IMG/VR virus record: IMGVR_UViG_3300036770_005357
From: a virus
Lineage: Duplodnaviria; Caudoviricetes
Length of the DNA stretch: 64,000 nt
Reading direction: 5' to 3' (one strand)
Below are positions 1 to 55,100 of this stretch, one piece after another (position 1 is the first letter of the stretch; every line of letters begins with the position of its first letter). Position numbers and translations under genes: made by a program. Below the pieces are notes generated by a model. It was not told the DNA's origin. It saw nothing but the letters and a program-made list of their open reading frames with translations, and made no database searches.

Positions 1-331
1 AAAATCTCCAATTATTTGCAAAACTATTGAATACATCTTTATACTGATTCTTAGATAAATTAACTTCAGTAAGAATATCTTTGGGTGGTGGATATACACT
101 ACTACCAATACCAATCATACCCAATAATTCTTTATCAGGTGGTGGAAATAAATCTTCGGAACCGTCTTCAACTAAATAAACCAACCAATCAATTCTTCTA
201 CCAACACTAGAATTGGATGGTACATAACTATGATGATTTTCAATAACCTTTTTAACTAGTTTCTTTTGATCTTCTGTAACTACTAGTTCAAGTTTAATTA
301 TTGATTTGTTTTTTGATAAATCCACGCTCAT
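1..331 (-). CDS. Partial ORF (runs off left edge): DUF4338/DruA- or Mom-like GNAT-fold protein, putative DNA-modifying enzyme
   Basis: Not in ORF track. Read by hand from ATG 331 (or ATA 301): ...KLELVVTEDQKKLVKKVIENHHSYVPSNSSVGRRIDWLVY...LGMIGIGSSVYPPPKDIL...FANNWRF. The HxY..GR..YLV / G.IG.GS / NNxRF pattern resembles DUF4338. Confidence 0.5.
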   Translation of the reverse strand, partial: MSVDLSKNKSIIKLELVVTEDQKKLVKKVIENHHSYVPSNSSVGRRIDWLVYLVEDGSEDLFPPPDKELLGMIGIGSSVYPPPKDILTEVNLSKNQYKDVFNSFANNWRF

Positions 332-899
332 CAAATATGAATCGGTTTTGATATACACTGTTACAATGATAACATTGAGGAATAGTATTGTCAATAGTAA
401 GTGGTTTATTAGGATCCATATGTCCTTTTTCTAAACGAGTAATATCCGATGGAAATTTAAAATGTGGTTCACCTTCTTTACTACCACAACAAATACATCT
501 GTAATTATAAGTTTTCTTCAAACCATCCCAATCAATATTACAGTCTCTACGACCTAACGACCAATTTAAATGTGGTACCGTAAAATCACTTGCTTGATAA
601 TTACAATTCTTTTTATTACCAGACTTACTTATATTCCATCCTTTTTGTGTACTTAAATGTCTAGCTTGTTGTACATCATTAACTTCAGGATAAAAATTAC
701 GAATAAAAATAGTCAACTCACGCTTACTAACAAGTCGATCACGATGTCTATACAAATAAACAAGTGTAAGAGCATCAATAACAAACTTATTATTCTTCTT
801 AGAAATAAGTTTAGGCATAACAATACCCAACTTCTCAAGATGTTCCTTGTGAAGATTTACGAGTTCTTGATATACACTATTAATTTCTTCGATAGTCAT
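294..899 (-). CDS. HNH endonuclease with N-terminal DNA-binding region (type II restriction endonuclease-like)
   Basis: C-terminal CxxC..LEKGHMDP..NTIPQCYHCN His-Me finger. The N-terminal DVQQARHL motif resembles bacterial REase-like proteins (recalled, not searched). Confidence 0.6.
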   Translation of the reverse strand: MTIEEINSVYQELVNLHKEHLEKLGIVMPKLISKKNNKFVIDALTLVYLYRHRDRLVSKRELTIFIRNFYPEVNDVQQARHLSTQKGWNISKSGNKKNCNYQASDFTVPHLNWSLGRRDCNIDWDGLKKTYNYRCICCGSKEGEPHFKFPSDITRLEKGHMDPNKPLTIDNTIPQCYHCNSVYQNRFIFDERGFIKKQINN

Positions 900-904
900 T
901 TGTA

Positions 905-946
905 TGGTGGGTATGGAGGGAGTCGAACCCCCATGCCTTTCGGCGG
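905..946 (-). pseudogene. 3' half of a class II tRNA-Leu (variable arm, T arm, acceptor 3' strand, ACCA), 5' half missing
   Basis: Minus strand: CC GCC-GAAA-GGC AT GGGGG-TTCGACT-CCCTC CATACCC A CCA. No matching GGGTATG 5' strand upstream. Confidence 0.75.
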
Positions 947-954
947 TTTTATAA

Positions 955-1031
955 TGGTAGCTAGGGTCAGATTCGAACTGACACTGGACCGATTTTGAGT
1001 CGGGTGCCTCCTGCCGTTGGGCTACCTAGCC
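955..1031 (-). tRNA. tRNA-Leu(CAA), short variable region, CCA encoded
   Basis: GGCTAGG/CCTAGCT acceptor, CCCGA-CTCAAAA-TCGGT anticodon arm, GTCAG-TTCGAAT-CTGAC T arm, ACCA. Confidence 0.9.
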
Positions 1032-1045
1032 ATTAAAATTAAAAA

Positions 1046-1138
1046 TGGTGGTCCTGTCAGGTAACGCTCCTGATTCTTACGCTAGTCCGGCGATTAACTG
1101 TGTTATAAGCACAGCGGCTTTCTTTAAGCTACAGGACC
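1046..1138 (-). tRNA. tRNA-Ile(UAU), atypical: 5-nt D loop, 24-nt extra arm, T loop AGCGTTA
   Basis: GGTCCTG/CAGGACC acceptor, GCTT/AAGC D stem, CTGTG-CTTATAA-CACAG, TCAGG-AGCGTTA-CCTGA, ACCA. Confidence 0.8.
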
Positions 1139-1148
1139 ATTTTAAAAT

Positions 1149-1160
1149 TTTTAAAGAACT
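1149..1160 (-). promoter_or_regulatory. boxA-like element upstream of tRNA-Ile
   Basis: AGTTCTTTAAAA on minus strand, similar to rrn boxA TGCTCTTTAACA. Confidence 0.55.
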
Positions 1161-1178
1161 ATCAACTTCTATGTAATA

Positions 1179-1206
1179 ACTATACCATGTTCTTTTTAAG
1201 AGTCAA
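1179..1206 (-). promoter_or_regulatory. sigma70-type promoter driving tRNA-Ile/Leu/HNH
   Basis: TTGACT-16 nt-TATAGT with extended -10 TGG. Confidence 0.75.
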
Positions 1207-1276
1207 CCGAAATTTTTGGTTTCGGGTTAAATATTTAAAATTCGATTTTTGAGTTTTATTTATATATTTATATTAT

Positions 1277-1951
1277 ATGACTTTTTTATTTACTGACAAA
1301 GATTTCGAAAATGCTAAATCACATGACAAGTTGAATCTTAAATGTAAAAATTGTAACGGAACATTTTCTTCTACCAAGAAAGCGATTAATTTTGAATTAA
1401 AACATAAAAGAGGTAGATTACAATTTTGTACAAAAAAATGTTTTGATGATAAACAAACTAATAAAAATCCTGTTAATTGTAAACAATGTAATAAAATAGT
1501 TTTAAAAATACCTAGTCAACTTAAAAGGTCTCCGAATACATTTTGTTCTTCTTCTTGTTCCGCAACTTATAATAATACACATAAAAAATTTGGTACTAGA
1601 AGATCTAAATTAGAAAAATGGTTGGAAGAAAAATTGATTCAGTTACATCCGAATTTAGTTTTTCACTTTAATCGTAAAGACACTATCAACGCCGAATTAG
1701 ACATTTATATACCATCTTTAAAGTTAGCATTCGAGTTAAATGGAATATTTCATTACGAACCAATATATGGAGAAGAAAAACTACATTCAACTCAAAATAA
1801 TGATAAAAGAAAATTCCAAGCGTGTTTAGAACAAAAAATTGAACTTTGTATTATAGATGTTTCCAAAGAAACATATTTTAAAGAACATATATCAAAAAAA
1901 TATTTAGATATTATAAATAATATAATAAATTCTAAATTGTTGAATTCTTAG
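1277..1951 (+). CDS. Free-standing homing endonuclease-like protein (Zn-ribbon repeats + PD-(D/E)xK Vsr/DUF559-like domain), antisense within the tRNA array
   Basis: CxxC..FCxxxC repeats, then ELDIYIPSLKLAFELNGIFHY..NDKRKFQAC. TATTTATA at 1265-1272 just upstream. Confidence 0.75.
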   Translation: MTFLFTDKDFENAKSHDKLNLKCKNCNGTFSSTKKAINFELKHKRGRLQFCTKKCFDDKQTNKNPVNCKQCNKIVLKIPSQLKRSPNTFCSSSCSATYNNTHKKFGTRRSKLEKWLEEKLIQLHPNLVFHFNRKDTINAELDIYIPSLKLAFELNGIFHYEPIYGEEKLHSTQNNDKRKFQACLEQKIELCIIDVSKETYFKEHISKKYLDIINNIINSKLLNS

Positions 1952-2009
1952 TTACAGATATTAACTGTATGCAATAGTCACTGCGTGCAAGTGATTCAAC
2001 TTGACTATC
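1939..2009 (-). ncRNA. HDV-like self-cleaving ribozyme (tRNA-associated, theta-type, with P4)
   Basis: P1 GATAGTC/GACTATT (G1.U), P2 GTTGAATC/GA(A)TTCAAC, P3 ACT/AGT, L3 TGCACGC (U20, G25), P1.1 GC/GC, P4 TACAG/CTGTA, J4/2 ACTAA with catalytic C at 1951. Confidence 0.88.
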
Positions 2010-2084
2010 TTGCAGCTACAGGAGTCGAACCTGCTATCGCCTGGTTATGAGCCAGGAATGATATTTCCGTTTCACTCAGCTGCG
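2010..2084 (-). tRNA. tRNA-Met(CAU), initiator-like (C1:A72), no encoded CCA
   Basis: CGCAGCT/AGCTGCA with C1:A72 mismatch, CCTGG-CTCATAA-CCAGG, GCAGG-TTCGACT-CCTGT, discriminator A at 2010 followed directly by ribozyme G1. Confidence 0.85.
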
Positions 2085-2092
2085 ATTGAAAA

Positions 2093-2104
2093 TTTAAAAG
2101 AACT
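2093..2104 (-). promoter_or_regulatory. boxA-like element upstream of tRNA-Met
   Basis: AGTTCTTTTAAA. Confidence 0.5.
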
Positions 2105-2116
2105 AAAATTGTAAAT

Positions 2117-2281
2117 TGGTGTTGGGTATTTTTATTGAATACTTAATTACCCAACGAATCAAGTATACCATGAACTAACCCCGCAACCAAGAAATTTTTA
2201 AGAGAATTTCCAACTCTGGGAGTTTTTGGTTATATACTCCTCCACCAGTCAGTTTTGAATTTGGATGTCTGACAACCAAAA
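2117..2281 (-). ncRNA. Candidate pseudoknotted ncRNA ending in ACCA (tRNA-Glu/tRNA-Met spacer)
   Basis: 5' domain: TTTTGGTT/AACCAAAA, GTCAG/CTGAC, GGAGT/ACTCC. 3' H-type pseudoknot: ATACTTGAT/ATTAAGTAT + GTTGGGTA/TACCCAAC, then ACCA. Confidence 0.5.
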
Positions 2282-2282
2282 G

Positions 2283-2357
2283 TGGCAGTCCTGCGGAGAT
2301 TCGCACTCCGGTCTCTTGGATGAAAGCCAAGAATCCTAACTACTAGACGACAGGACC
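2283..2357 (-). tRNA. tRNA-Glu(UUC), CCA encoded, T loop TGCGAAT
   Basis: GGTCCTG/CAGGACT, CTTGG-CTTTCAT-CCAAG, CGGAG-TGCGAAT-CTCCG, GCCA. Confidence 0.9.
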
Positions 2358-2367
2358 ATTTAAAGCG

Positions 2368-2510
2368 AACTGGTAACCCGATTCGGTTTTTTACGAACCG
2401 GTTTCCTACTGTCTTTAGGCGGATGATTTATGTTTTCTCTTCTCACGTCAAGCGGTTATACAATAGACAGTGTATAACTTTTTGTCATCCTCTCTAGATA
2501 ATTACCAGTT
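2368..2510 (-). ncRNA. Candidate multi-stem ncRNA with kissing loop (tRNA-Lys/tRNA-Glu spacer)
   Basis: 10-bp closing helix AACTGGTAAT/GTTACCAGTT, GGATGA/TCATCC, GTTATACA/TGTATAAC, CCTA/TAGG, CCGGTTCG/CGAATCGG, loop-loop CTGTCT/AGACAG. Confidence 0.6.
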
Positions 2511-2515
2511 TAAAT

Positions 2516-2590
2516 TGGTAGGGCGCCACGGTAACGATCCGTGTTCTACTGGTTAAAAGCCAGTTGCTTCACCGTTAAAGCTTGCACCCC
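2516..2590 (-). tRNA. tRNA-Lys(UUU), CCA encoded, T loop ATCGTTA
   Basis: GGGGTGC/GCGCCCT, GCTT/AAGC, ACTGG-CTTTTAA-CCAGT, CACGG-ATCGTTA-CCGTG, ACCA. Confidence 0.9.
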
Positions 2591-2598
2591 ATTAAAAA

Positions 2599-2610
2599 TG
2601 TTAAAGAACT
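2599..2610 (-). promoter_or_regulatory. boxA-like element upstream of tRNA-Lys
   Basis: AGTTCTTTAACA, 10/12 identical to E. coli rrn boxA TGCTCTTTAACA. Confidence 0.65.
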
Positions 2611-2626
2611 AAACTTACAGAAACCG

Positions 2627-2754
2627 TGTAACTTTTGTATCCCTAAAGTTACAGAAAAGGGTCAGACTCACACTGAGGTGATAAGTTGTTTTTTCGTTAA
2701 ACTTATAACAATCGGTTGAGTTTTTAGTTTTCGGTATCGGACTCAACTAACCTT
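2627..2754 (-). ncRNA. Candidate structured 5' leader RNA
   Basis: GGTTAG/CTGACC enclosing TTGAGT/ACTCAA, ATAAGTT/AACTTAT and CTCA/TGAG hairpins, followed by the 9-bp hairpin TGTAACTTT/AAAGTTACA. Confidence 0.4.
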
Positions 2755-2762
2755 ATGTAATC

Positions 2763-2790
2763 ATCTTACCAGAACTTTTCGTTTTGTCAA
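2763..2790 (-). promoter_or_regulatory. sigma70-type promoter for Lys-Glu-Met tRNA transcript
   Basis: TTGACA-16 nt-TAAGAT with extended TGG. Confidence 0.75.
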
Positions 2791-2812
2791 CCGTCTTTTT
2801 TCTTTTTCTTTT

Positions 2813-2887
2813 TGGCGATCCCCTTTGATAGAAGGTCAAGGCGATTCCTGCACACTTAGATGCTCTGGAGGAGTGCTACTCCCGCCA
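2813..2887 (-). ncRNA. Candidate 75-nt GC-rich perfect four-way-junction RNA
   Basis: TGGCG|GGAG-TAGCA-CTCC|TCC..GGA|ATC..GAT|CGCCA with no unpaired junction nucleotides. Has its own promoter and a boxA-like element upstream. Confidence 0.5.
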
Positions 2888-2891
2888 TGCT

Positions 2892-2903
2892 AGAAAAAGA
2901 ACT
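2892..2903 (-). promoter_or_regulatory. boxA-like element upstream of four-way-junction RNA
   Basis: AGTTCTTTTTCT. Confidence 0.4.
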
Positions 2904-2916
2904 TACTATACTTATT

Positions 2917-2944
2917 ATCCTACCACAAACTTTTCAAAGATCAA
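2917..2944 (-). promoter_or_regulatory. sigma70-type promoter
   Basis: TTGATC-16 nt-TAGGAT with extended TGG. Confidence 0.6.
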
Positions 2945-2990
2945 GTATTTTTTGTAGTTATAAATATATAAATGTTCAAAAAAATACTTG
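2942..2990. repeat. 12-bp inverted repeat enclosing a TATTTATA motif, downstream of tRNA-Arg
   Basis: CAAGTATTTTTT (2942-2953) / AAAAAATACTTG (2979-2990). TATAAATA at 2959-2966 on plus strand. Confidence 0.6.
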
Positions 2991-2996
2991 TAAAAA

Positions 2997-3077
2997 TGGC
3001 GCTTCGGGAGGGATTTGAACCCACATTTACATCCAATTATGCACTTAGAGCTTAGAAGACTCCGCCATTACCGAAGC
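2997..3077 (-). tRNA. tRNA-Arg(UCU)-like, D stem absent, long variable arm, CCA encoded
   Basis: GCTTCGG/CCGAAGC acceptor, 7-nt connector TAATGGC, GGAGT-CTTCTAA-GCTCT, extra arm TGCAT-AATTGG-ATGTA, GTGGG-TTCAAAT-CCCTC, GCCA. Confidence 0.7.
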
Positions 3078-3094
3078 ACGATCACTTATTGAAA

Positions 3095-3424
3095 TTACTG
3101 CTTATCCTTCTTTAGTTCATCTTGTACTGACTTACCCAGTTCTGTCAAGCCAAAAAGTGGCTCTCCATTCTTATCATAACCAACAATCTGTACAAGTCCT
3201 TGCTTGACAAGATCATCCACAGTTTCCTTAACCTCCATAAGAGAAGCCTCTTCATAGATTTCATTGGCTTCAGCTTCGTCACAACCAGTTTCCTTCATAA
3301 TGTACTCAATGGCAGATTGTCGTTCACACTGCTTATCCAGCTCATCTACATTAAGATTTGCGCAATGGTTAAGCACTTGATCAATTGTACCGGTAAACAT
3401 ACCACCGTGTTCAGAAAATTCCAT
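3095..3424 (-). CDS. Hypothetical protein, possible C-terminal winged helix
   Basis: ORF track. C-terminus LVKQGLVQIVGYDKNGEPLFGLTELGK. Confidence 0.6.
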   Translation of the reverse strand: MEFSEHGGMFTGTIDQVLNHCANLNVDELDKQCERQSAIEYIMKETGCDEAEANEIYEEASLMEVKETVDDLVKQGLVQIVGYDKNGEPLFGLTELGKSVQDELKKDKQ

Positions 3425-3854: not shown

Positions 3855-4877
3855 TTATATATTGAATATAGATTTTAGCTTAGATTCTACTGTATAGAAC
3901 CAATCTGTATTATTTGAAGGTGTGGTTGGAATTTTACTTAAAAGTATTTTCGTACTATATGTTGCCAAACCATGTTGTTCGGCATCATTACAATTGGCAT
4001 ATTGTTCGTAGTGATTTGGCAATGGTACCATTAAGACTGGTTTATTATTCAATATAGCTTCAGCGGTTGTTTCAAATCCACCGCTACAAATAACAGCTTT
4101 GCACACTTTCATTTTTTCTTGAAAAAGTTTACCGTCTAATTTATGTAATTTTAAGTTATGTGGACATTCAAAATTTCTTGTTAATCTTGTAAAGCATTCT
4201 AATTTTATATCTGGATATTTTATAGCTTCTTCAATTAAACCGGGTACCAAATCTTGATTCATTAAATATATTAACACAAAATCTTCAGTTTTGTCACTTT
4301 TGTCATAACTGTTTTGTCTAAGCACTGGTGGACAGCAGATAACATTATCATCATTAAATTCATAATAACTCAACGCAACTTTTTTGGCTCGTATAGTTGT
4401 GATACAATTAATTAACTTTACAAAGAATTTTTGTATTGCATAACCATTTATTTTTGGATATACATCAAGTATCATTGCATTTTGGTGGGATATGCTTATA
4501 TAATTGATTTTAGGAAATAATAAAGCAGAAAGCCCGACCAATGGTTCATAAAAGTTAACAATTGTATCTGGATTTTCTTGTTTGATTGTTTTACAAATCT
4601 TAATAAATGCATAAATTAATCGGGGTAATTCTATTACATTTTTTAACATGGTTTTCCATAAAACTACTTTGCCGTGATTATCAAATACAAAATCAAAACC
4701 TTCAAAGGTTACCACATTAAATTCATCGGTAAAAAACTTTGGTAGACCTACTTTCTTTTCTGCTGCTAATATACAGCTTACATCGTGATTGTTTTTATTT
4801 AGAAATTGTTTAGTGGCAATAGCTTGTATTGTATGTCCACTACCTTCTGTACAAACAGCAAATAATATTTTTTTCAT
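3855..4877 (-). CDS. GT-B glycosyltransferase, MJ1255/VC2487-like (GT28/GT1 related)
   Basis: N-terminal CTEGSGHTIQA. C-terminal GGFETTAEAILNNKPVLMVP..HYEQYAN. Confidence 0.8.
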   Translation of the reverse strand: MKKILFAVCTEGSGHTIQAIATKQFLNKNNHDVSCILAAEKKVGLPKFFTDEFNVVTFEGFDFVFDNHGKVVLWKTMLKNVIELPRLIYAFIKICKTIKQENPDTIVNFYEPLVGLSALLFPKINYISISHQNAMILDVYPKINGYAIQKFFVKLINCITTIRAKKVALSYYEFNDDNVICCPPVLRQNSYDKSDKTEDFVLIYLMNQDLVPGLIEEAIKYPDIKLECFTRLTRNFECPHNLKLHKLDGKLFQEKMKVCKAVICSGGFETTAEAILNNKPVLMVPLPNHYEQYANCNDAEQHGLATYSTKILLSKIPTTPSNNTDWFYTVESKLKSIFNI

Positions 4878-5578
4878 AATTTTATTAATTGTATATCACC
4901 GTCAACAGTTTCAACTACAGCTGTAAGGCTTTCAACGAAATCTCCTGTATTAACATAATGAATATTGTTCATTTGTTTGATTATAGGCGCGTGTATATGT
5001 CCACAAATTACGCCGTCATAATTATTTAATTTACAATATTCCGATAGAGTATCTTCATAATTACCGATGTATTTTACAGCTTCTTTAGCTTTTTGTTTTA
5101 AAAAATTACTGAAGCTAAATTTAAACATTCTGAATAATTTATTTATACCCAAACTAAAATCGTAAATTACAGCTCCAATTCTTTGAATCCACTTATTTTT
5201 GGTTACTATGCCATCAAATTGATCGCCGTGTATAATCAAATATCTTTTATTATTCAGTGTTGTATGTATTGTTTCTCTTGTAATAAGAATATTATCTCCA
5301 AAATGAATATCATTAAATGGTTCCATAAAGTCATCGTGATTACCCCACAAATAGGTAACAACCGTACCTTTACGACTCATTCTTAATATCTTTTGCAATA
5401 TTACATTGTAGTTGTTGTGCCATTTAAATCTTCGTTTGAGTGCCCAACCATCTACAAAATCACCTATTATGTATAAATATTCACATTCAGTTTCACTTAT
5501 TAATTTCAATAACTTTTCATGATTACAAAACTCACTTCCAATGTGTGTATCGCTAATAAAAAGAGTTCTTACTTTCAT
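4874..5578 (-). CDS. LpxH/YbbF-like metallophosphoesterase (UDP-2,3-diacylglucosamine hydrolase family)
   Basis: FISDTHIG, IIGDFVDGW, GNHD, IHGDQFD, ICGHIH, NTGDFVE. Start placed at MKVRT (5578), the track gives 5620. Confidence 0.85.
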   Translation of the reverse strand: MKVRTLFISDTHIGSEFCNHEKLLKLISETECEYLYIIGDFVDGWALKRRFKWHNNYNVILQKILRMSRKGTVVTYLWGNHDDFMEPFNDIHFGDNILITRETIHTTLNNKRYLIIHGDQFDGIVTKNKWIQRIGAVIYDFSLGINKLFRMFKFSFSNFLKQKAKEAVKYIGNYEDTLSEYCKLNNYDGVICGHIHAPIIKQMNNIHYVNTGDFVESLTAVVETVDGDIQLIKL

Positions 5579-5725
5579 TGACAATAAATATAAAAAGGTA
5601 TGGTTACAAAGTCGTGACAAATGTTTTTTGTAAAGGAATTGTAAAAGTTAAAATTTATCTATTATAAAAAATTATGTATATTATGTAATCAATTAAGGTT
5701 ACGATTTAAAACGAAAGGATTATAT

Positions 5726-6653: not shown

Positions 6654-7334
6654 TTAAGCTTGTTTAGATTCAAAAAATCCTCTTTTAGCGAGAGTTTCTG
6701 CATCTTCCAACATATCTTTCAACATTTCCTTAGCAATTTCGTCTTTTTCGATACTACCGAAAAGTTTCTCGAATTCTTGTCTTTCGTCTGATTTTTTAAT
6801 ATTATCTATATCCGTGCGAATTTCCAAACTTAAAAAATCAATTTTTTCTTCAAAACTCATTTTTTTGTATTTTCGCCAATCAAGCATTCCCATGTTTTTG
6901 ATTGCATATATAACATTATTTTTATATTTATCTACTAATTTTCTCAATCTGACTTTTTTGTTGATTAGTTGTTTTTCTTTTTCCTTTTCCAAGTAATTTC
7001 TCAAGTACGCATTAAAATGATACAAAATGGATGTACCAGGAAATTCACTATATTCATCAAAATCAAATCCACCATAACCACCGTTATGTTGTGAAGTGTT
7101 TAAATAAGTAAGAAAATCGTTTAACTTTTCATTACTCCAACCGGCTTTAGCTGCATATTGTTTTATTGTAAATTTTGGTCGTTTCTCAACTCTTTGTCGT
7201 GTACCGGTTAAACCATCTGGATCCCAATCAGGTCGTTCAGTCTCTGGTTCTTCATAATATTCATTAATATTTAAATGTTCTTTAAGCAGTTTAAGATGCT
7301 TCTTAAATGTGTCGTTTAAAGTGTTTTCGTTCAT
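6654..7334 (-). CDS. Hypothetical protein (possible virion/late protein)
   Basis: ORF track. Tandem TATTTATA at 7355-7368 upstream. Confidence 0.7.
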   Translation of the reverse strand: MNENTLNDTFKKHLKLLKEHLNINEYYEEPETERPDWDPDGLTGTRQRVEKRPKFTIKQYAAKAGWSNEKLNDFLTYLNTSQHNGGYGGFDFDEYSEFPGTSILYHFNAYLRNYLEKEKEKQLINKKVRLRKLVDKYKNNVIYAIKNMGMLDWRKYKKMSFEEKIDFLSLEIRTDIDNIKKSDERQEFEKLFGSIEKDEIAKEMLKDMLEDAETLAKRGFFESKQA

Positions 7335-20644: not shown

Positions 20645-23269
20645 ATGCTTAATTTGAACATACAGTGGTCTGATCCAGTTCAAATTGAAAAAAACGGAGA
20701 AGTTCTCTTTCAGAGAAGTTGGGTTATACCGCCAGAATATCTTAATCAGTTCTTTACTTATTGGAAAGTCAATAAGTTTGCTTTAAAAGAAAGAGGTTAT
20801 GGTGTAACTAAACTGGTTGATAAATGGATTCTTACAGAAGTTAAAGATAACCCTACTTTCTTTAAAGATCCTAAGAAGACGAAAGAAACCGTTGACGAAA
20901 AATTACCGTTATATGAAGTGAAGAATCCAAATGGCCTACGTCCATGGCAAGTTGATGCTGTAAGCAAAATAGTAGCATCAATAAATAAATGGGGCGCTGC
21001 TGTGGACGGTAGTGATGTAGGCATTGGCAAATGTCATTCAAAAGGAACGAAAATTAGAATGTATGATGGATCGTTAAAAAATGTTGAAGATATAATAGTT
21101 GGTGATCTATTAATGGGAGATGATTCTTCACCCAGAACAGTTTTATCATTAGCTAACGGAATTGATCAAATGTACGAAATTGTCCCAACAAATGGTGGAA
21201 TTTCGTGGGGATGTAATAGCGAACACATATTAGTTTTAAACTATACATCTAGAAAACAAACAATTGAAATTTCTGTAAAAGATTTTCTTACAAAATATAA
21301 AACTAATCGCCATAATTGGACTTTAAAACGGGTTGTTGTAAACTATCCATATAAAAAAGTTAATATTGATCCATATCTAATGGGATTATGGATTGGAGAT
21401 GGAACTTGGAATTCATTATCAATTACTACACATAAAAAAGATACTTCCATAATTAACTATTTATACAATTTTGAAAACCAAGTAGATTTAAATGTACGGA
21501 TTTATAAATCTAAAAACCGTGAGTTATCAAACTGTAATACATATTACTTAAGAAGTAATATTATTGGTAAAAATATTTTATGGAATGAATTTAAAAAATA
21601 TGGCTTCGGTAAAAATAAAGAAAAATTTATACCCAAAGAATTTTTGATAAATGATATTAATACTCGCAAATCAATTTTAGCCGGTCTTATAGATTCGGAT
21701 GGTTGGAAAGATTCAAATGGTTGTTATGGTATTATAACCAAATGGGAAAAGTTGAGAAATGACATAGTTGAACTGTCTCGTTCACTTGGATATAAAGTTT
21801 CAATACATGATAAAGTATCAAAAAACAATAATTTTGGTATAAACGGAAATGTTTATTATAAAATTCAAATATCAGGCGCACATGATTTACCAATATTACT
21901 TGATCGGAAAAAATCATCGTCTAGAAAACAAAAAAAATCAGTGTTATCAAGTGGTTTTAAGATTATTCCAAAAGGCATCGGAGAGTATTTTGGTTTTACA
22001 TTAGACAACAATCATAGATATCTTTTAGAAGATTTCACCGTTACACATAATACATACACAGCGACTGCTGTTGCCAGAGAACTAGATATGGACATTATGG
22101 TTGTATGTCCAAAAGCAGTCATGGAAAGTTGGAAAAGAGTTATAAAAAACCATTTCAAATATTGGGGTAAATGTATTGGTATTGTTAACTATGAATCTCT
22201 TCGTATAGGTAGAACAGATAGTATGTTTGCATCTATTGTTAAAAGAAGAGATACCCGTCGTAAAGAATTTGTGTGGAAAGTACCCAAGAATACATTAATT
22301 GTATGGGATGAAGCACAAAAGTTGAAGAATGCTAAAACCAAGAATAGTGAAATGTGTATGGCTGCTTTAAAAGCTGGATATAAGATGTTATTCTGTTCGG
22401 CTACTATGGCAACCAATCCACTAGAACTAAAGACGGTAGGTCAATGTATTCAATTGTTTAAAACCAATAAACAATACTATGATTGGGCATATGCACACGG
22501 TGTTGTGAGAGGTAGATTTGGTATGGAATTTACAGGTGATCGTAAAGCACTTGCTAAATTAAATAATGATATATTCAACAATAGAGGTGTAAGACTTAAA
22601 CGAGATAAAATTCCTAACTTTCCAGAAAGTCAAATTATAGCGGAATGTTATGAAATGGAAAAAGAAGATCAAGATAAGATTAACTCTGCTTATGATGAGA
22701 TGAGACTTGAACTTCTTAAGATTGAGAAATTAGCTAAAAAAGATCAAAAGACATCCGAATTAACCGCTATATTGCGCGCACGCCAGAAAGTTGAGATTGT
22801 TAAGGTGCCATTGTTTGTGGAAATGGTAGAAGAAGGTTTAGAGAATGGAATGAGCGTTGTTGTATTCTGTAATTTTACCGAAACAATTAAAGCGTTGTCT
22901 CAAAGATTAAACACACAATGTATTGTTAACGGTGAAATAAAAGATAAAGTAAGACAACAAAACATAGATGATTTTCAGATGGATAGACAACGAGTTATCC
23001 TAATAAATCTAGCAGCGGGTGGTGCTGGATTGAACTTACACGATATAACTGGTAAACATCCAAGGTTGGCATTGATTAGTCCTTCATATTCAGCAGTAAA
23101 TATGCGTCAGGCTACTGGTAGAGTATGGCGTGATAGTGCTAAGAGTAAGAGTCTTCAAAAAATAGTATTTGTTGCAAATACAGTTGAAGAAAAAGTATGT
23201 GATAGCGTCAATCAAAAACTAGCTAATTTGGATTTGCTTAACGATGGAGATATGAATTATGCCAAATAA
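20645..23269 (+). CDS. SNF2/SF2 helicase interrupted by an intein
   Basis: LRPWQ, SDVGIGK|T (Walker A), WDEAQ, SATM, NL..GGAGLNL, QATGRVWR. Confidence 0.9.
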   Translation: MLNLNIQWSDPVQIEKNGEVLFQRSWVIPPEYLNQFFTYWKVNKFALKERGYGVTKLVDKWILTEVKDNPTFFKDPKKTKETVDEKLPLYEVKNPNGLRPWQVDAVSKIVASINKWGAAVDGSDVGIGKCHSKGTKIRMYDGSLKNVEDIIVGDLLMGDDSSPRTVLSLANGIDQMYEIVPTNGGISWGCNSEHILVLNYTSRKQTIEISVKDFLTKYKTNRHNWTLKRVVVNYPYKKVNIDPYLMGLWIGDGTWNSLSITTHKKDTSIINYLYNFENQVDLNVRIYKSKNRELSNCNTYYLRSNIIGKNILWNEFKKYGFGKNKEKFIPKEFLINDINTRKSILAGLIDSDGWKDSNGCYGIITKWEKLRNDIVELSRSLGYKVSIHDKVSKNNNFGINGNVYYKIQISGAHDLPILLDRKKSSSRKQKKSVLSSGFKIIPKGIGEYFGFTLDNNHRYLLEDFTVTHNTYTATAVARELDMDIMVVCPKAVMESWKRVIKNHFKYWGKCIGIVNYESLRIGRTDSMFASIVKRRDTRRKEFVWKVPKNTLIVWDEAQKLKNAKTKNSEMCMAALKAGYKMLFCSATMATNPLELKTVGQCIQLFKTNKQYYDWAYAHGVVRGRFGMEFTGDRKALAKLNNDIFNNRGVRLKRDKIPNFPESQIIAECYEMEKEDQDKINSAYDEMRLELLKIEKLAKKDQKTSELTAILRARQKVEIVKVPLFVEMVEEGLENGMSVVVFCNFTETIKALSQRLNTQCIVNGEIKDKVRQQNIDDFQMDRQRVILINLAAGGAGLNLHDITGKHPRLALISPSYSAVNMRQATGRVWRDSAKSKSLQKIVFVANTVEEKVCDSVNQKLANLDLLNDGDMNYAK
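21032..22051 (+). mobile_element. Intein (340 aa) with LAGLIDADG homing endonuclease, inserted in Walker A GK/T
   Basis: Starts CHSKGTKIRMYDG, contains YLMGLWIGDG and LAGLIDSDG, ends LLEDFTVTHN followed by Thr. Confidence 0.95.
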
Positions 23270-24803: not shown

Positions 24804-25922
24804 ATGAAAAATGTTATGGATATTTTAAACATAAATGATAGTTTATCTTTCTTAGATAAAAATAAGAAAGTTGTTTTTGTAACAGGTGTTACTGGACAAG
24901 ATGGCAGTCATATAGTTGATTATCTTCTTAAAAATACGGATCATATCATCATCGGTGGTGTTAGAAGGTTAAGTATTAAAAATCATGAAAATATAAAACA
25001 TCTTGAAAACAATCCAAGGTTTAAAATAGTTAACTTTGATTTAAGTGATGCACATAGTATTAGTAAAATAGTAGAAACGATTAAACCAGACTATTTTATT
25101 AATTTGGCAGCCCAAACATTCGTTGGATCGTCGTGGGATTTTCCAGCCCAAACTTGGGAATGTAATACAACGGGTGTAATTCATATACTAGAAGCAATTA
25201 AACAACATAAACCGAATTGTAGATTTTACAACGCAGGTAGTAGCGAAGAATATGGCAATGTAGAATATACTCCACAAGATGAAAAACATCCATCTAAACC
25301 TCGTAGTCCGTACGGAGCGAGTAAATCAGCTGCTAGACAATTAGTTAAAGTATATCGTGAAAGTTATAATTTATATGCAGTTCAAGGTTTGTTGTTTAAT
25401 CATGAAGGTACTAGAAGAGGTGAAGAATTTGTAACTCGTAAGATCACAAAAGGTGTAGCTAGAATTAAACAAGCTTTGTTGGAAAACAAATCATTTGAAT
25501 CTATAGAATTAGGCAATGTAGATGCAAAACGAGATTGGAGTGATGCTGAAGATTTTGTCGATGGTATATGGTTGATGATGAATCAAAATAAACCAAATGA
25601 ATATGTGCTCAGTAGCAATGAAACACATACAATCCGTGAATTCGTTTCACTCGCATTTAAATATGCTGATATAGGAGGTAATTGGCATGGTAACGGATTA
25701 AGTGAACAATTCAGTATAAGTCATAATGATTATACAACTTACAATCCTAAATCAAGTGTTATGGTTAAAATTAATCCTAAGTTCTTTAGACCAGCTGAAG
25801 TAGATTTATTATTAGGTGATAGTACCAAGGCTAGAACTGAACTGAATTGGAAACCTAAAACAACATTTGAACAATTGGTTCAGAAAATGGTAAAAAATGA
25901 TTTAAATTTAATTGGATTATAA
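24804..25922 (+). CDS. gmd: GDP-mannose 4,6-dehydratase
   Basis: TGVTGQDG, NLAAQTFV, AGSSEEYG, PRSPYGASK, LFNHE..RRGEEFVTRKIT, RDWSDA, FRPAEVDLLLGD. Confidence 0.95.
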   Translation: MKNVMDILNINDSLSFLDKNKKVVFVTGVTGQDGSHIVDYLLKNTDHIIIGGVRRLSIKNHENIKHLENNPRFKIVNFDLSDAHSISKIVETIKPDYFINLAAQTFVGSSWDFPAQTWECNTTGVIHILEAIKQHKPNCRFYNAGSSEEYGNVEYTPQDEKHPSKPRSPYGASKSAARQLVKVYRESYNLYAVQGLLFNHEGTRRGEEFVTRKITKGVARIKQALLENKSFESIELGNVDAKRDWSDAEDFVDGIWLMMNQNKPNEYVLSSNETHTIREFVSLAFKYADIGGNWHGNGLSEQFSISHNDYTTYNPKSSVMVKINPKFFRPAEVDLLLGDSTKARTELNWKPKTTFEQLVQKMVKNDLNLIGL

Positions 25923-26642: not shown

Positions 26643-28019
26643 TTAAATTTTTTTAGGTATATATTCTAGTGCTTTTAGAACATCGGTGTTTTTATAAGAC
26701 GCCCACATTTGATCATTATCATCGTAATAAGAATGAAAATGATACATATTAAATGTGGGAATTAATTCATAATCTATCAATATATCCGATCCATCTAAAA
26801 ATTCTTTTTCCGCACCAAATTTACCACATATTACTTTATTACCAAATTTTTTAGCAGTGTAACTGCACAGTCCAAATCCTTCTCCTCGATTTAATGTAAA
26901 ATAAACATCAAAATTATTATGTAAACTTTGAATTTCAATCTCACTTAAATCTTGAAAGCAAAAAATTAAATCGGGTGGATTTTTAAAATGTTTAACAATT
27001 TCATTTATTTTATATTTTAACCATTCGGTTTGAGAGGGAATAACATCTTTTAAAGATGTTTTAACAAATAAACAAACATTGTCGTTTTTAGTAAATCTTG
27101 TACAAAAAGTTTTTATCATTTGATCAAGATTTTTCCGTTCAGTATATTGACTTATATTATAATAAACAGTTTTTGTATTTAAAATATTTTCAATTTGAAT
27201 GTCGTGTCTAATAAATTTAGATTCTTTGTACAATCGCATTTTCTCTGTCAAACTTTTAATTGATACTAAATTGTTAATTTCTGGCGGTAAAATATCATAT
27301 TTCCAAATGTGTAAAGGTTTTTCTACTCCTGAATTTTTAAATATTTCATAATTAAATTGTGATGGTATAATCACCTCTTCGACAGCACTTTCATTAATTA
27401 AATTTACCCAATTTTTATTCAGTTTTGTAGTTTCCCACACAGTGCTCGCTAATAATTTTTTGCAAATTATATTTTCATTTTGTATGATTTTTTGCCACTC
27501 GTTCGGCGTTGTTTTAATTATACATGTATCATATTCATTGTTATCAGTCTGTTTATCCAATTTTTCAAAAATATTTTTTTCTGAAATGCATGTGGGTTCA
27601 TAGTTTGATTCAAAATAGTTTTTAACATTCCAGTAAACATCATATTTTTGATTTTGTAATTGATAAATGTAATTTCTACTAGCATAACCGTAACCAGTTT
27701 TATTGTTAGCTGAAATAAAATTAATTATATTACCTTCAATAAAAGATAAATTTGTAAATTTGTGTTCAAACAAAACTTTATAATTCTTCAATCTAACTAT
27801 TTTAAATGTTACATCGTTTTTAAAAAAAGAAAATGGTTTATTTAAACCAGAAAAATATGTAACTTTATTACGAACTTGCGTTAAATCACAATGTAATAAC
27901 GATTTATAAAAATCATCTTCCCAAATAAACATCACAGATTCATTTTCATCAATGCCGTTTACAGTAAATTCAATAAATAATGGATCGGTTTTTTTGCTTA
28001 CTAAAATAATCATGCTCAA
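26643..28019 (-). CDS. GT4-like glycosyltransferase with N-terminal extension
   Basis: TGYGYASRNY, STVWET, ERKNL, RGEGFGL. Confidence 0.8.
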   Translation of the reverse strand: MSMIILVSKKTDPLFIEFTVNGIDENESVMFIWEDDFYKSLLHCDLTQVRNKVTYFSGLNKPFSFFKNDVTFKIVRLKNYKVLFEHKFTNLSFIEGNIINFISANNKTGYGYASRNYIYQLQNQKYDVYWNVKNYFESNYEPTCISEKNIFEKLDKQTDNNEYDTCIIKTTPNEWQKIIQNENIICKKLLASTVWETTKLNKNWVNLINESAVEEVIIPSQFNYEIFKNSGVEKPLHIWKYDILPPEINNLVSIKSLTEKMRLYKESKFIRHDIQIENILNTKTVYYNISQYTERKNLDQMIKTFCTRFTKNDNVCLFVKTSLKDVIPSQTEWLKYKINEIVKHFKNPPDLIFCFQDLSEIEIQSLHNNFDVYFTLNRGEGFGLCSYTAKKFGNKVICGKFGAEKEFLDGSDILIDYELIPTFNMYHFHSYYDDNDQMWASYKNTDVLKALEYIPKKI

Positions 28020-42589: not shown

Positions 42590-42955
42590 TCATGGAAAAA
42601 TTACCTCATCATCGACTAAAATTCCTATTATTCTAATTCCCAACACACGATCATCATTAACAACAGTAAATTCATTTTTCAGTTCAAATAAAAATTCATT
42701 TTTATCAGTCATGTTTAAATTAATAATGTTAAGACAATCCGATTTTATTTCCGACTCTTTATCGTCGTACAATAATACATTATCAATTTCACTAAATGCT
42801 TTGATTGTAATAGATTTAACATTTGAAACAATACCATATACTTTAGTTGAAGTCCAAACCCAAAAAAATTTTTTGTCAGTTTCTAATGGAAAAATTCCTT
42901 CTAAAAATTGAACTAATTTTTTTGAATCGTCTAATTTTTTATAATTTATTTTCAT
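42590..42955 (-). CDS. Hypothetical protein
   Basis: ORF track. GIFPLE..WVWT..DDR.LG resembles accessory domains of glycosylation clusters. Confidence 0.55.
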   Translation of the reverse strand: MKINYKKLDDSKKLVQFLEGIFPLETDKKFFWVWTSTKVYGIVSNVKSITIKAFSEIDNVLLYDDKESEIKSDCLNIINLNMTDKNEFLFELKNEFTVVNDDRVLGIRIIGILVDDEVIFP

Positions 42956-44033
42956 AAAACATTTTCATTAATTCATATGTATGATTCAAATCGGGATATC
43001 CCCATTCTTGGTCTTCGGTATAAGAAGTACTAAACCCATTCATGCCTGTAACTTTATTAATTTTAAAATCTACCAAACCTTTATAATCTTTACCCAAATA
43101 ATCTACTTGTCCACCATATCCAGTAGTTATGATGTTTTTTCCTAGATTATAAGCATCAAATATAGTTAAACCGAAACCTTCTCCTTTGTTTAAACTAACA
43201 TAACAGTCACCAAAACTATGTAATCCTAATATATGATCATTAGATAAATTATCTAACAATAAAAATATACTTTTACCCAATTTATTAGTTAATTTTGATA
43301 TTTTATCAATACAATAATGTTTATTCGTAAAACTATATTCTTTGTAATGAAGTTTTAAAATTAATTGTGTATCCGGAAAATTATTATTAAACTCATCAAA
43401 CACTTTAACTAAATCCTCAATACCCTTTCTACAATTCAATTCTCCTATACTATAAAATGTAAATTTACTGTCTGGCACTTTATTTCCCCAAAAATCATAA
43501 ATCTTAACTTCGTTTTTATTAAATAATTTTTGTTTATGCCATATATGAGGTATAACCTCAATCTTAGATTTTACACCAGAATTTATAAAACACTCTTTAT
43601 TAAAATTACTAGGTACCCAAACTTCAGATGCTAAATTTATATGTTCAACCCATTTATCGGGTAATTTATTGGTCTCCCATGTACAATAACCAATTACATC
43701 AGATATATTTTTATTTTCTTTAATGAATGATTCCCATAAATCGGGTGTACTATGCATTATTAATCGTTCATATTTATTATAATTTTTATTTAAAACACTT
43801 TCACATAAAGCATCTACATAATAATTTCTGTCATTTTTACTATCATCGAAATATAAAGGATGCCATGATATGTTAATATTTCTAAGAACATAATCTGCTA
43901 TATAACCCTTAGCAGCACATGCGTATCCACATGTACCAGATTGTCCAATATATTTTAAAACATTGTCAAAATTTATTTTTACTGAAAAAATAGTTTCTTC
44001 TACAGACTTTTTAAATTTTACACACTTTATCAT
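42939..44033 (-). CDS. GT4-like glycosyltransferase
   Basis: GTCGYACA, YCTWET, VWVPS, RKGI, KGEGFGL. Confidence 0.85.
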   Translation of the reverse strand: MIKCVKFKKSVEETIFSVKINFDNVLKYIGQSGTCGYACAAKGYIADYVLRNINISWHPLYFDDSKNDRNYYVDALCESVLNKNYNKYERLIMHSTPDLWESFIKENKNISDVIGYCTWETNKLPDKWVEHINLASEVWVPSNFNKECFINSGVKSKIEVIPHIWHKQKLFNKNEVKIYDFWGNKVPDSKFTFYSIGELNCRKGIEDLVKVFDEFNNNFPDTQLILKLHYKEYSFTNKHYCIDKISKLTNKLGKSIFLLLDNLSNDHILGLHSFGDCYVSLNKGEGFGLTIFDAYNLGKNIITTGYGGQVDYLGKDYKGLVDFKINKVTGMNGFSTSYTEDQEWGYPDLNHTYELMKMFYENKL

Positions 44034-53765: not shown

Positions 53766-55100
53766 ATGAACAAACCATTATGTTTAATTTCAGGACCAGT
53801 TTTTAATCGTAGCGGATATGGCGATTGGGCAACTGCTGTTGCTAAAAGTATTATTCGTTATGACAAATATGATGTTAAAATCGCACCAACTAGATGGGGA
53901 AACTGTCAAACAAAACGATTTTTTGAAGAAATTACAGATCCCGAAGATAAGATGTTATCGAGTAAATTTTTACAAGGACAATTAAACAAACAACCCGAAT
54001 TATTTATTCAACTCACAATACCGGAAGAATTTCAACCAATTGGCAAATATAATATTGGTATGACTGCTGGTATTGAAACTACAATTTCACCGGGCCCTTG
54101 GTTAGAGGGAATTAACAAAATGAATTTAACTATAGGTTTGTCTAACCATGTTAAAAAAATATTTATGGACACTAAAATGTCTAAAAAACTTGAAAATGGA
54201 CAAACGGTAAGTGTTCAGGTTGATAAACCCATTGAAGTGTGTTTTTGGGGTGTAGATACAAACATTTATAAGAAAACGGAAGAAAAATCAGAAACAGTTG
54301 ATCAAGCTTTATCTAAAATTGAAGAAAAGTCCGCTTTCCTTTTTATTGGTCAATGGACACACGGCGGTTTATTTAATGACAGAAAAGATATTGGTAATTT
54401 AATTAAAACATTTTGTAATGCATTTAAAAATAATGACAAAAATGATAAACCGTGCTTAATTATAAAAACGAGTGGTGCAAACTATTCAACTGTAGATCGG
54501 TTTGATATCTTAGACAAAATAAAAAGAATTAAAAGTGGATTAGGTGATAATTTGCCAAATGTTTATCTCTTACACGGAGAATTAAGTGATGTGGAAATGA
54601 ACGCACTTTTAAATCATGAAAAAATAATAGCACATGTTTCATTTACTCATGGAGAAGGATTTGGTCATCCATTGTTGTTAGCAACAATGAGTGGAAAACC
54701 TTTATTAGCACCTGACTGGAGTGGACATTTAGATTATTTAAACCCACAATATGCAAATTTGTTACCAGGCAATTTAGTAGATGTGAATAGATCGTCGGTA
54801 AATAATTGGATTTTAAAAGAAAGTAAATGGTTCAAAGTTTCATATTCATTAGCTGAGACTAAAATGAAAGATGTTTATTCATTCCGTAAACAAGATAAGT
54901 TTAATAAACCAGCGGAATTTCTAAGAGCCGAGAATTTCGAAAAATTCAGTTTACAAGCAATGGATCAAAAATTGTGGGGTATTCTTGATAAGTATGTTCC
55001 TAAATTTGCAGTCGAAAATAGTTTTGTCTTACCAAAACTAAAACCCATAGCTAATAAAACAGATCAGAACAAAATTGTTTTACCTAAATTAAAAATTTGA
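53766..55100 (+). CDS. GT4-like glycosyltransferase
   Basis: RSGYG, TAGIET, RKDIG, HGEGFG.P, WSGHLD. Confidence 0.85.
   Translation: MNKPLCLISGPVFNRSGYGDWATAVAKSIIRYDKYDVKIAPTRWGNCQTKRFFEEITDPEDKMLSSKFLQGQLNKQPELFIQLTIPEEFQPIGKYNIGMTAGIETTISPGPWLEGINKMNLTIGLSNHVKKIFMDTKMSKKLENGQTVSVQVDKPIEVCFWGVDTNIYKKTEEKSETVDQALSKIEEKSAFLFIGQWTHGGLFNDRKDIGNLIKTFCNAFKNNDKNDKPCLIIKTSGANYSTVDRFDILDKIKRIKSGLGDNLPNVYLLHGELSDVEMNALLNHEKIIAHVSFTHGEGFGHPLLLATMSGKPLLAPDWSGHLDYLNPQYANLLPGNLVDVNRSSVNNWILKESKWFKVSYSLAETKMKDVYSFRKQDKFNKPAEFLRAENFEKFSLQAMDQKLWGILDKYVPKFAVENSFVLPKLKPIANKTDQNKIVLPKLKI

Follow-up and report, generated by a model that had tools for sequence, protein, structure and literature searches.

A predicted HDV-like, P4-bearing ribozyme in the 3' trailer of a CCA-less phage tRNA-Met

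Why does a single tRNA gene in a phage tRNA array lack the 3'-terminal CCA that its neighbours encode, and what is the sequence that directly follows it? We address this question for a 64,000-nt stretch (the window) of the IMG/VR record IMGVR_UViG_3300036770_005357, assigned to the Caudoviricetes. Coordinates refer to the window unless marked 'genome', which designates the entire record, a linear IMG/VR contig of 173,066 bp that is ~73% complete and has a G+C content of 32%. On the minus strand of the window, a tRNA-Met(CAU) gene (2010..2084) is immediately followed by a 71-nt element (1939..2009) possessing all the parts of a hepatitis delta virus (HDV)-like ribozyme. Theta ribozymes are minimal HDV-like ribozymes that adjoin tRNAs in Caudoviricetes of the gut (Kienbeck et al. 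2024, Nat Commun 15:1559, PMC10879173). The evidence set out below suggests that the 71 nt behind tRNA-Met are very probably a self-cleaving, P4-bearing relative of this group, acting as a tRNA 3' trailer that would release the CCA-less tRNA.

The tRNA-Met gene and the element behind it

The initiator-like tRNA-Met scores 44.1 bits with the Rfam tRNA model, while the ARAGORN call (2011-2083) is one base shorter at either end than the Rfam alignment. Its acceptor end (CGCAGCU...AGCUGCA-A) displays a C1xA72 mismatch, marked as such in the Rfam alignment, followed by G2:C71 and C3:G70; the discriminator A73 is located at 2010 and no CCA is encoded after it. By contrast, CCA is encoded after Leu(CAA), Ile(UAU), Glu, Lys and a D-armless tRNA-like gene (3000-3077), and the seventh tRNA, Leu(UAA), located 360 bases beyond the window edge, likewise ends in CCA. 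Met is the sole CCA-less member among these seven tRNA(-like) genes, as the initial annotation had stated for the six in the array. The same annotation considered the gene to be of the initiator type, which holds for the acceptor set of bacterial initiators (1x72 mismatch, G2:C71, C3:G70, A73) but not for the remaining hallmarks: the anticodon stem (CCUGG/CCAGG) contains U29:A41, G30:C40 and G31:C39, and thus only two of the three consecutive initiator G:C pairs (29:41, 30:40, 31:39), and the D stem has U11:A24 rather than A11:U24. Assignment to the initiator type is plausible from these features, although they satisfy the bacterial definition incompletely.

Read from 2009 to 1939 on the minus strand, the element is GAUAGUC-AA-GUUGAAUC-ACU-UGCACGC-AGU-GACUAUU-GC-A-UACAG-UUAAUAU-CUGUA-A-CUAA-G(A)AUUCAAC. 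Its helices, all of which can be drawn, follow the order of the HDV nested double pseudoknot (P1-J1/2-P2-P3-L3-P3'-P1'-P1.1'-P4-J4/2-P2'). P1 consists of 7 bp between GAUAGUC (2003..2009) and GACUAUU (1973-1979), with a G1.U wobble (G2009 with U1973) at the base next to the cut site, and J1/2 is AA. The 5' strand of P2, GUUGAAU plus C (1993..2000), pairs with 1939-1947 (G, bulged A, AUUCAAC), giving 7 contiguous bp and a C-G pair across the single bulged A. The 3-bp P3 (ACU/AGU) closes the 7-nt L3 UGCACGC (1980..1992), the second and third positions of which form the 2-bp P1.1 with the GC that follows P1' (1971-1972; G1988-C1971 and C1987-G1972). Then comes the P4 hairpin (1952..1970), recognized from the sequence and from pairing across the family, in which an A, a 5-bp stem (UACAG/CUGUA) with a 7-nt loop (UUAAUAU) and a second A succeed one another. 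Finally, J4/2 (1948..1951) reads CUAA, identical to the theta J4/2, and presents a candidate catalytic C at 1951. Every HDV element listed in the initial annotation is therefore present, as the sequence, the descriptor, the covariance model R1 and the covariation described below all attest. The placement at the 3' end of the CCA-less tRNA was also correctly recognized: G1 (2009) is immediately 3' of A73 in the Rfam tRNA alignment and 1 nt from the tRNA end according to ARAGORN, and scission is predicted 5' of G1 (2010/2009).

A strict first descriptor retrieved nothing from the genome, because neither the bulged A nor the extra P2 pair was allowed. A looser HDV descriptor matched exactly one locus on the two strands of the 173,066-bp record, and gave no match in 40 first-order Markov random genomes of equal size. 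No match remained in the genome when A or G was required as the catalytic base, and with U the descriptor returned only one alternative parse of the same locus. Since the descriptor had been relaxed after the sequence had been inspected, independent evidence was sought with a covariance model (R1), in which P1, P3 and P4 are treated as pairs and which is derived from 29 further phage sequences, the window and its near-twin from contig L001 being left out. R1 aligned with 1939-2009 (minus strand) over positions 1-70 of its 70 positions (70 bits, E=4.9e-11), and this was its sole match in the window at E<=10, as well as the sole one in the genome.

A P4-bearing family and what it says about function

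The family was retrieved from IMG/VR with a pattern that fixes P3, L3, P1.1' and CUAA only and leaves P1, P2 and P4 free. The scan yielded 62 unique matches, 47 of which have a perfect 7-bp P1 together with a perfect 7-bp P2, and several further matches are one pair short of perfection in P1/P2. When the same pattern was run on 596 Gb of bacterial and archaeal genomes, just 2 of the 120 matches listed passed the full descriptor. The pattern is accordingly noise in bulk DNA and a marker of the full fold in phage contigs, and so few cellular passes do not allow a host to be inferred. A matched scan with the catalytic C changed to U gave 93 pattern matches, not one of which held up as a U-variant; with C, 29 unique sequences pass strictly.

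The P4-bearing sequences constitute a coherent subfamily in IMG/VR phages, defined by L3 UGCACGY, P1.1 GC/GC and an A-hairpin-A P4, and comprising at least 33 unique sequences; the full-length, significant R1 match places the window element within it. We aligned 31 unique P4-bearing sequences, window included, on the five-helix pseudoknotted structure. In this alignment 95.7% of the cells pair, compared with 27-54% when the partners are slid by 1-3 columns; changes on both sides are seen in 19 of the 25 pairs, and the observed covariation score was reached by no shuffle. Six of the seven P1 pairs change on both sides (98% of cells paired), the base pair at G1 being G.U in 27 sequences and G-C in 4, and seven of the eight P2 pairs covary. 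P1, P2, P3 and P1.1 were required by the family filter, whereas P4 and the extra P2-P3 pair never were, and for this reason the latter two provide the cleanest covariation evidence: in P4, 94.8% of the cells pair, each of the five pairs covaries and the A residues on either side are invariant, and at the extra pair 16 sequences have C-G, 13 have U-A and 2 have G-C. Separately, three IMG/VR sequences (L030, L074 and L094) have A, not G, at P1 +1 with the other helices intact, and may be natural A1 ribozyme variants.

The location of the ribozyme relative to tRNAs recurs across the family. For 18 of the 33 unique members ARAGORN puts a tRNA 3' end no more than 1 nt from G1, and most of the remaining ones have a T-loop and acceptor strand just upstream; L068, L087 and L045 have no upstream tRNA. 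Nine of the 18 adjoining tRNAs are Met, the others being Glu, Pro, Thr, Lys and one CUA suppressor. The ribozyme-linked tRNA-Met of L046, L054, L080 and L095 is initiator-like, with a 1x72 mismatch, A11:U24 and a GGCUCAUAACC anticodon arm.

Closer relatives were found through an exact core 22-mer, which is shared in IMG/VR with contig L001. The L001 ribozyme is nearly identical to that of the window, from which it differs by an additional A in J1/2 and in the loop of P4; the tRNA-Met ahead of it shows compensated divergence in the acceptor, anticodon and T stems alike. A tRNA-Ile begins ~25 nt after the L001 ribozyme, and the homing-endonuclease-like open reading frame (ORF) found next to the window ribozyme is absent there. 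The other exact-word match in IMG/VR, L022, was discarded as a chance occurrence in G+C-rich coding DNA. The unusual D arm of this tRNA-Met, used as a search pattern, identified 21 phage loci, at which the orthologous tRNA-Met mostly ends in A-CCA without a ribozyme; the 'ribozyme, no CCA' state is confined to the window and L001. The homologous tRNA-Met genes have U1xU72 or C1xA72. Orthologous tRNA genes appear to flip evolutionarily between 'encoded CCA' and 'ribozyme, no CCA'. In the GenBank phage collection there were matches at the tRNA level only and none to the ribozyme, and an R1 search of Microcystis phage Mel-JY01, the nearest cultured relative, was without match. The locus is covered by contigs from four studies of marine, freshwater, lake and aquatic metagenomes, with flanks differing at many places; among the variants listed, the ribozyme varies only at 1964 (A>T and an inserted T), the first base of the P4 loop, as in L001. 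The holders of the locus among those listed come from subsurface, freshwater or marine samples, none from the gut, and no RNA sample is found among the sequencing runs listed as holding it.

Several points count against a self-cleaving ribozyme at this locus. Cleavage is a prediction for the window sequence and for every member of the P4-bearing subfamily. Except for the C/U control, the conservation of L3, P3, P1.1' and CUAA follows from the construction of the search pattern. The record being ~73% complete, a lack of CCA-adding and healing enzymes is not established. The nested minimum free energy (MFE) fold of the ribozyme RNA is unremarkable (z = -0.9), the MFE algorithm being unable to form the pseudoknot and hence uninformative. 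Lastly, the initial annotation had proposed a search with HDV-like models, and its outcome was divided: R1 matched as described above, but no Rfam HDV-type family (HDV ribozyme, HDV-F-prausnitzii, CPEB3, drz) did so at E<=10 in 700-3400, or at gathering score across the window. Nested covariance models cope badly with double pseudoknots, and we attribute the Rfam result to this limitation, given how divergent the double pseudoknot is, and do not count it against the fold.

The modest z of the nested fold and the ease with which short A/U helices form in a genome of 32% G+C are what could be said for a chance resemblance in A/T-rich intergenic DNA. Such a resemblance would have to coexist with the absence of descriptor matches in 40 random genomes, the E-value of an independently built model, the covariation across the family and a near-identical ribozyme behind the strongly diverged tRNA of L001. 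The descriptor null, the covariation and the R1 match effectively refute it, and we give it almost no credence.

Covariation, on the other hand, proves structure and not catalysis. Together with the purely predicted status of cleavage and the unmatched Rfam HDV models, this would suit a trailer that is a conserved structured RNA without self-cleavage, such as a 3' cap, a folding aid, or an RNase recognition element or antideterminant, the tRNA end being generated by host RNase Z-type enzymes. Such a role would leave unexplained the core shared with theta ribozymes that do cleave, the family-wide requirement for C in J4/2 (29 with C, 0 with U) and the position of G1 within 1 nt of the tRNA end in more than half of the family (18 of 33); because of these three features we disfavour it and regard it as distinctly unlikely.

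It is also conceivable that cleavage is real but chiefly serves to separate or insulate transcription units, here by blocking antisense read-through into the convergent homing-endonuclease gene and in L001 by parting tRNA-Met from the next tRNA. The overlap of the ribozyme with the 3' end of the convergent ORF, the tRNA-Ile ~25 nt past the L001 ribozyme, the three members without an upstream tRNA and the many theta ribozymes lying away from tRNAs (Kienbeck et al., PMC10879173) are all compatible with this possibility. However, CCA has been lost at exactly those orthologues that bear the ribozyme, and a register of a single nucleotide with the discriminator ties the ribozyme to the tRNA 3' end. 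Although insulation and tRNA maturation are not mutually exclusive, insulation as the chief role seems highly unlikely, and maturation of the tRNA 3' end by self-cleavage is the reading that we retain.

Predicted processing route and genomic surroundings

Under 3'-end maturation by self-cleavage, the trailer would fold during transcription into the nested double pseudoknot P1/P1.1/P2/P3/P4, whereupon C1951 in J4/2 and a bound Mg2+ would catalyse the attack of the A73 2'-OH on the A73-G1 phosphate. The cut would leave the tRNA ending precisely at its discriminator and carrying a 2',3'-cyclic phosphate; the freed ribozyme would start with a 5'-OH. Because of the established chemistry of HDV ribozymes, the tRNA end would need healing: the cyclic phosphate would have to be opened and removed before CCA could be added. 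For cleavage, end chemistry, healing and CCA addition alike, we extrapolate from this chemistry and from four theta ribozymes. In this manner, the ribozyme would replace the encoded CCA and the host 3' nucleases at this single initiator-like tRNA.

Looking for the healing and CCA-adding genes, as the initial annotation had advised, gave a mixed picture in the ~73%-complete record. PolyA_pol, RtcB, PNK3P, 2H phosphoesterase and HD had no match, and AAA_33 was found below its cut-off only. The record does encode a DRB0094-family RNA ligase (TIGR02306, 179.5 bits, cut-off 151; genome 17767-18774) beside an ATP-dependent DNA ligase, as well as two metallophosphoesterases (4874-5620 of the window; genome 15604-16434), neither of which could be assigned a substrate or linked to RNA end healing. 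Since no CCA-adding enzyme is encoded in this incomplete record, healing and CCA addition would likely be carried out by host enzymes, perhaps aided by RNA-repair genes of the phage. DRB0094 ligases are present in 54.5% of theta-bearing phages, a 140-fold enrichment (PMC10879173), and the ligase identified here fits that pattern. As a separate observation, genome 15604-20150 (outside the window; L112, L145) contains a metallophosphoesterase, a 192-aa protein, the DRB0094 RNA ligase and the ATP-dependent DNA ligase, and is a possible nucleic-acid repair module.

A more speculative role can be imagined for the cyclic phosphate, which might create a locked pool of initiator-type tRNA, chargeable only after healing and CCA addition, and thereby a timed switch of translation initiation. 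The DRB0094-type ligase and the neighbouring metallophosphoesterase might control the unlocking step, and the flipping between CCA and ribozyme among orthologues would fit the idea; we nevertheless consider such a switch unlikely.

Under code 11 the genome reads as densely coding, and the tRNAs identified include no suppressor, in agreement with the description of the phage in the initial annotation as one using the standard code. The PVC (Planctomycetes-Verrucomicrobia-Chlamydiae) host suggested there is not borne out: the family B DNA polymerase (PolB) has its nearest cultured relative in Microcystis phage Mel-JY01 (44% identity), and nothing found here points to PVC.

Directly 3' of the ribozyme, an A/U-only hairpin is followed by a U-run (1894..1937, minus strand; -7.5 kcal/mol, z -1.4, not significant). 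It is absent from the list produced by the terminator scan, which revealed no G+C-rich terminator, and is a weak candidate for the end of the transcription unit. The scan for transcription signals gave no convincing promoter for tRNA-Met. The convergent ORF (1277..1951, plus strand) encodes a homing-endonuclease-like protein of 224 aa (PHROG 559, E=2e-13; PHROG 9084, E=2e-8; HNH/homing endonuclease). Its final 13 bases, TAG stop included, overlap the 3' strand of P2 and J4/2 of the ribozyme, and the stop codon is complementary to J4/2 with its catalytic C. A second gene of this kind (294-899, minus strand), which also has HNH-type PHROG matches, flanks part of the tRNA array together with 1277-1951. 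Elsewhere in the window, a SNF2-type helicase gene is split by an intein with a Hint domain and a LAGLIDADG homing endonuclease (20645-23269, plus strand), and GDP-mannose 4,6-dehydratase and several glycosyltransferase-like genes occur at 24804-25922 (plus), 3855-4877, 26643-28019 and 42939-44033 (minus) and 53766-55100 (plus).

The motif AGTTCTTTAA (at most 1 mismatch) is found 10-13 nt before the 5' ends of tRNA-Ile, -Met, -Lys and -Leu(UAA), the sites being 1151-1160, 2095-2104 and 2601-2610 (minus strand), genome ~59700 (minus strand), and 7196-7206 and 7363-7373 in L001. It also precedes tRNAs of related phages and is not enriched window-wide; in L068 and L087 a similar word (AGTTCTTTGAC) is found ~14 nt ahead of the tRNA-less ribozyme. 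A role as phage promoter element or as processing signal is conceivable for the motif. ORF-free spacers separate the tRNAs at 2085-2282, 2358-2518 and 2591-2999 (minus strand), for which the Rfam search returned no match, and they may represent small RNAs or regulatory leaders. One block (2119-2199), which includes an 8-bp hairpin (GUUGGGUA...UACCCAAC), is covered at high depth in several metagenomes by contigs of divergent sequence.

Other members of the array are also unusual. The tRNA-like gene at 3000-3077 (minus strand) has almost no D arm, a variable region of ~19 nt and the anticodon loop CUUCUAA (UCU, Arg); it scores 29.9 bits with the Rfam tRNA model, barely above threshold, and is not called by ARAGORN. 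tRNA-Ile(UAU) (1049-1138, minus strand) carries a 21-nt insertion in its variable region. In the interval separating tRNA-Leu(CAA) from the ORF that starts at 899, a T-arm/acceptor-like minihelix ending in CCA (905-950, minus strand) reads GGCAUGG-GGGUUCGACUCCC-UCCAUACC-CA-CCA and weakly resembles the 3' end of transfer-messenger RNA (RF00023 positions 347-363, E=0.09); it may be what is left of a tRNA, or may serve tRNA enzymes as a mini-substrate.

Relation to canonical HDV-like and theta ribozymes

Canonical HDV-like ribozymes (HDV genomic and antigenomic, CPEB3, drz; Webb and Luptak) form a nested double pseudoknot that includes P4, with G1.U at the base of P1 and the catalytic C in J4/2, and cut 5' of G1 to leave a 2',3'-cyclic phosphate and a 5'-OH. 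Compared with these, the window element is much shorter and A/U-rich, and its context is the 3' trailer of a phage tRNA.

The likeness to theta ribozymes is much closer. Both have a 7-bp P1 with G1, J1/2 AA, a 7-bp P2, a 3-bp P3 (ACY/RGU), L3 of the form U-NN-ACGY, a 2-bp P1.1 and J4/2 CUAA, in the same order and with the same sizes. They also share the cleavage site at the 3' end of a CCA-less phage tRNA, predicted here, and a DRB0094-type ligase in the genome; the window ribozyme also fits the theta definition, which allows up to 5 nt in either direction between cleavage site and tRNA 3' end. In vitro cleavage that depends on Mg2+ and on C is documented for four theta ribozymes sharing this core, and CCA is encoded by just 4.5% of theta-linked tRNAs (PMC10879173). 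The differences concern form and setting. L4 was made shorter in the final theta motif (PMC10879173), and the window element departs from this minimal form, with a 19-nt A-hairpin-A P4 against an L4 of 5-8 nt in the theta examples compared. P1.1 is GC/GC in the window and CC/GG in theta, a change on both sides, and only the window element has the extra C-G pair with a bulged A linking P2 to P3. Moreover, the source is subsurface, freshwater or marine, not gut, and the phage uses the standard code and lacks a suppressor tRNA.

The novelty implied by the initial annotation is reduced on two counts. tRNA-Met is already among the three commonest theta partners, and Met, suppressor and Leu tRNAs together make up more than 70% of the partners (PMC10879173). 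As for the form, the extended list already contains members that combine the same L3/P1.1 core with a short P4 hairpin (PMC10879173). The looser first-motif list (Supplementary Data File 4) includes a gut member of the same subfamily, sharing with the window L3 U-GC-ACGY, P1.1' GC, an A-stem-loop-stem-A before CUAA and J1/2 AA, and differing from it by a 3-bp P4 and by its gut virome source. Our IMG/VR scan recovered this member and a one-base variant of it (L111 and L060), both of which align with the window and have no evident tRNA upstream. The words of the window ribozyme and of its tRNA D arm do not occur in the parts of the PMC10879173 supplements searched, which does not prove their absence from the whole. 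A full-text literature search found no further publication about phage HDV-like ribozymes linked to tRNAs.

The window ribozyme does not overturn the current understanding of these elements, and its additions are modest, namely a complete P4 hairpin, an origin in aquatic habitats instead of the gut, and an initiator-type tRNA as partner. With respect to habitat, ribozymes at tRNA 3' ends have been reported almost only from mammalian gut phages, and the present candidate extends them to a large phage with a T4-like polymerase from subsurface, freshwater and marine settings, where the co-occurrence with a DRB0094-type RNA ligase echoes, now outside the gut, the enrichment reported in 2024. With respect to form, the range is widened by a coherent P4-bearing subfamily of at least 33 unique IMG/VR sequences, and with respect to partners, by the repeated location of its members behind initiator-type tRNA-Met genes. 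Finally, orthologues that have either CCA or the ribozyme offer a natural comparison for understanding why a phage would use a ribozyme-generated tRNA end that needs healing.

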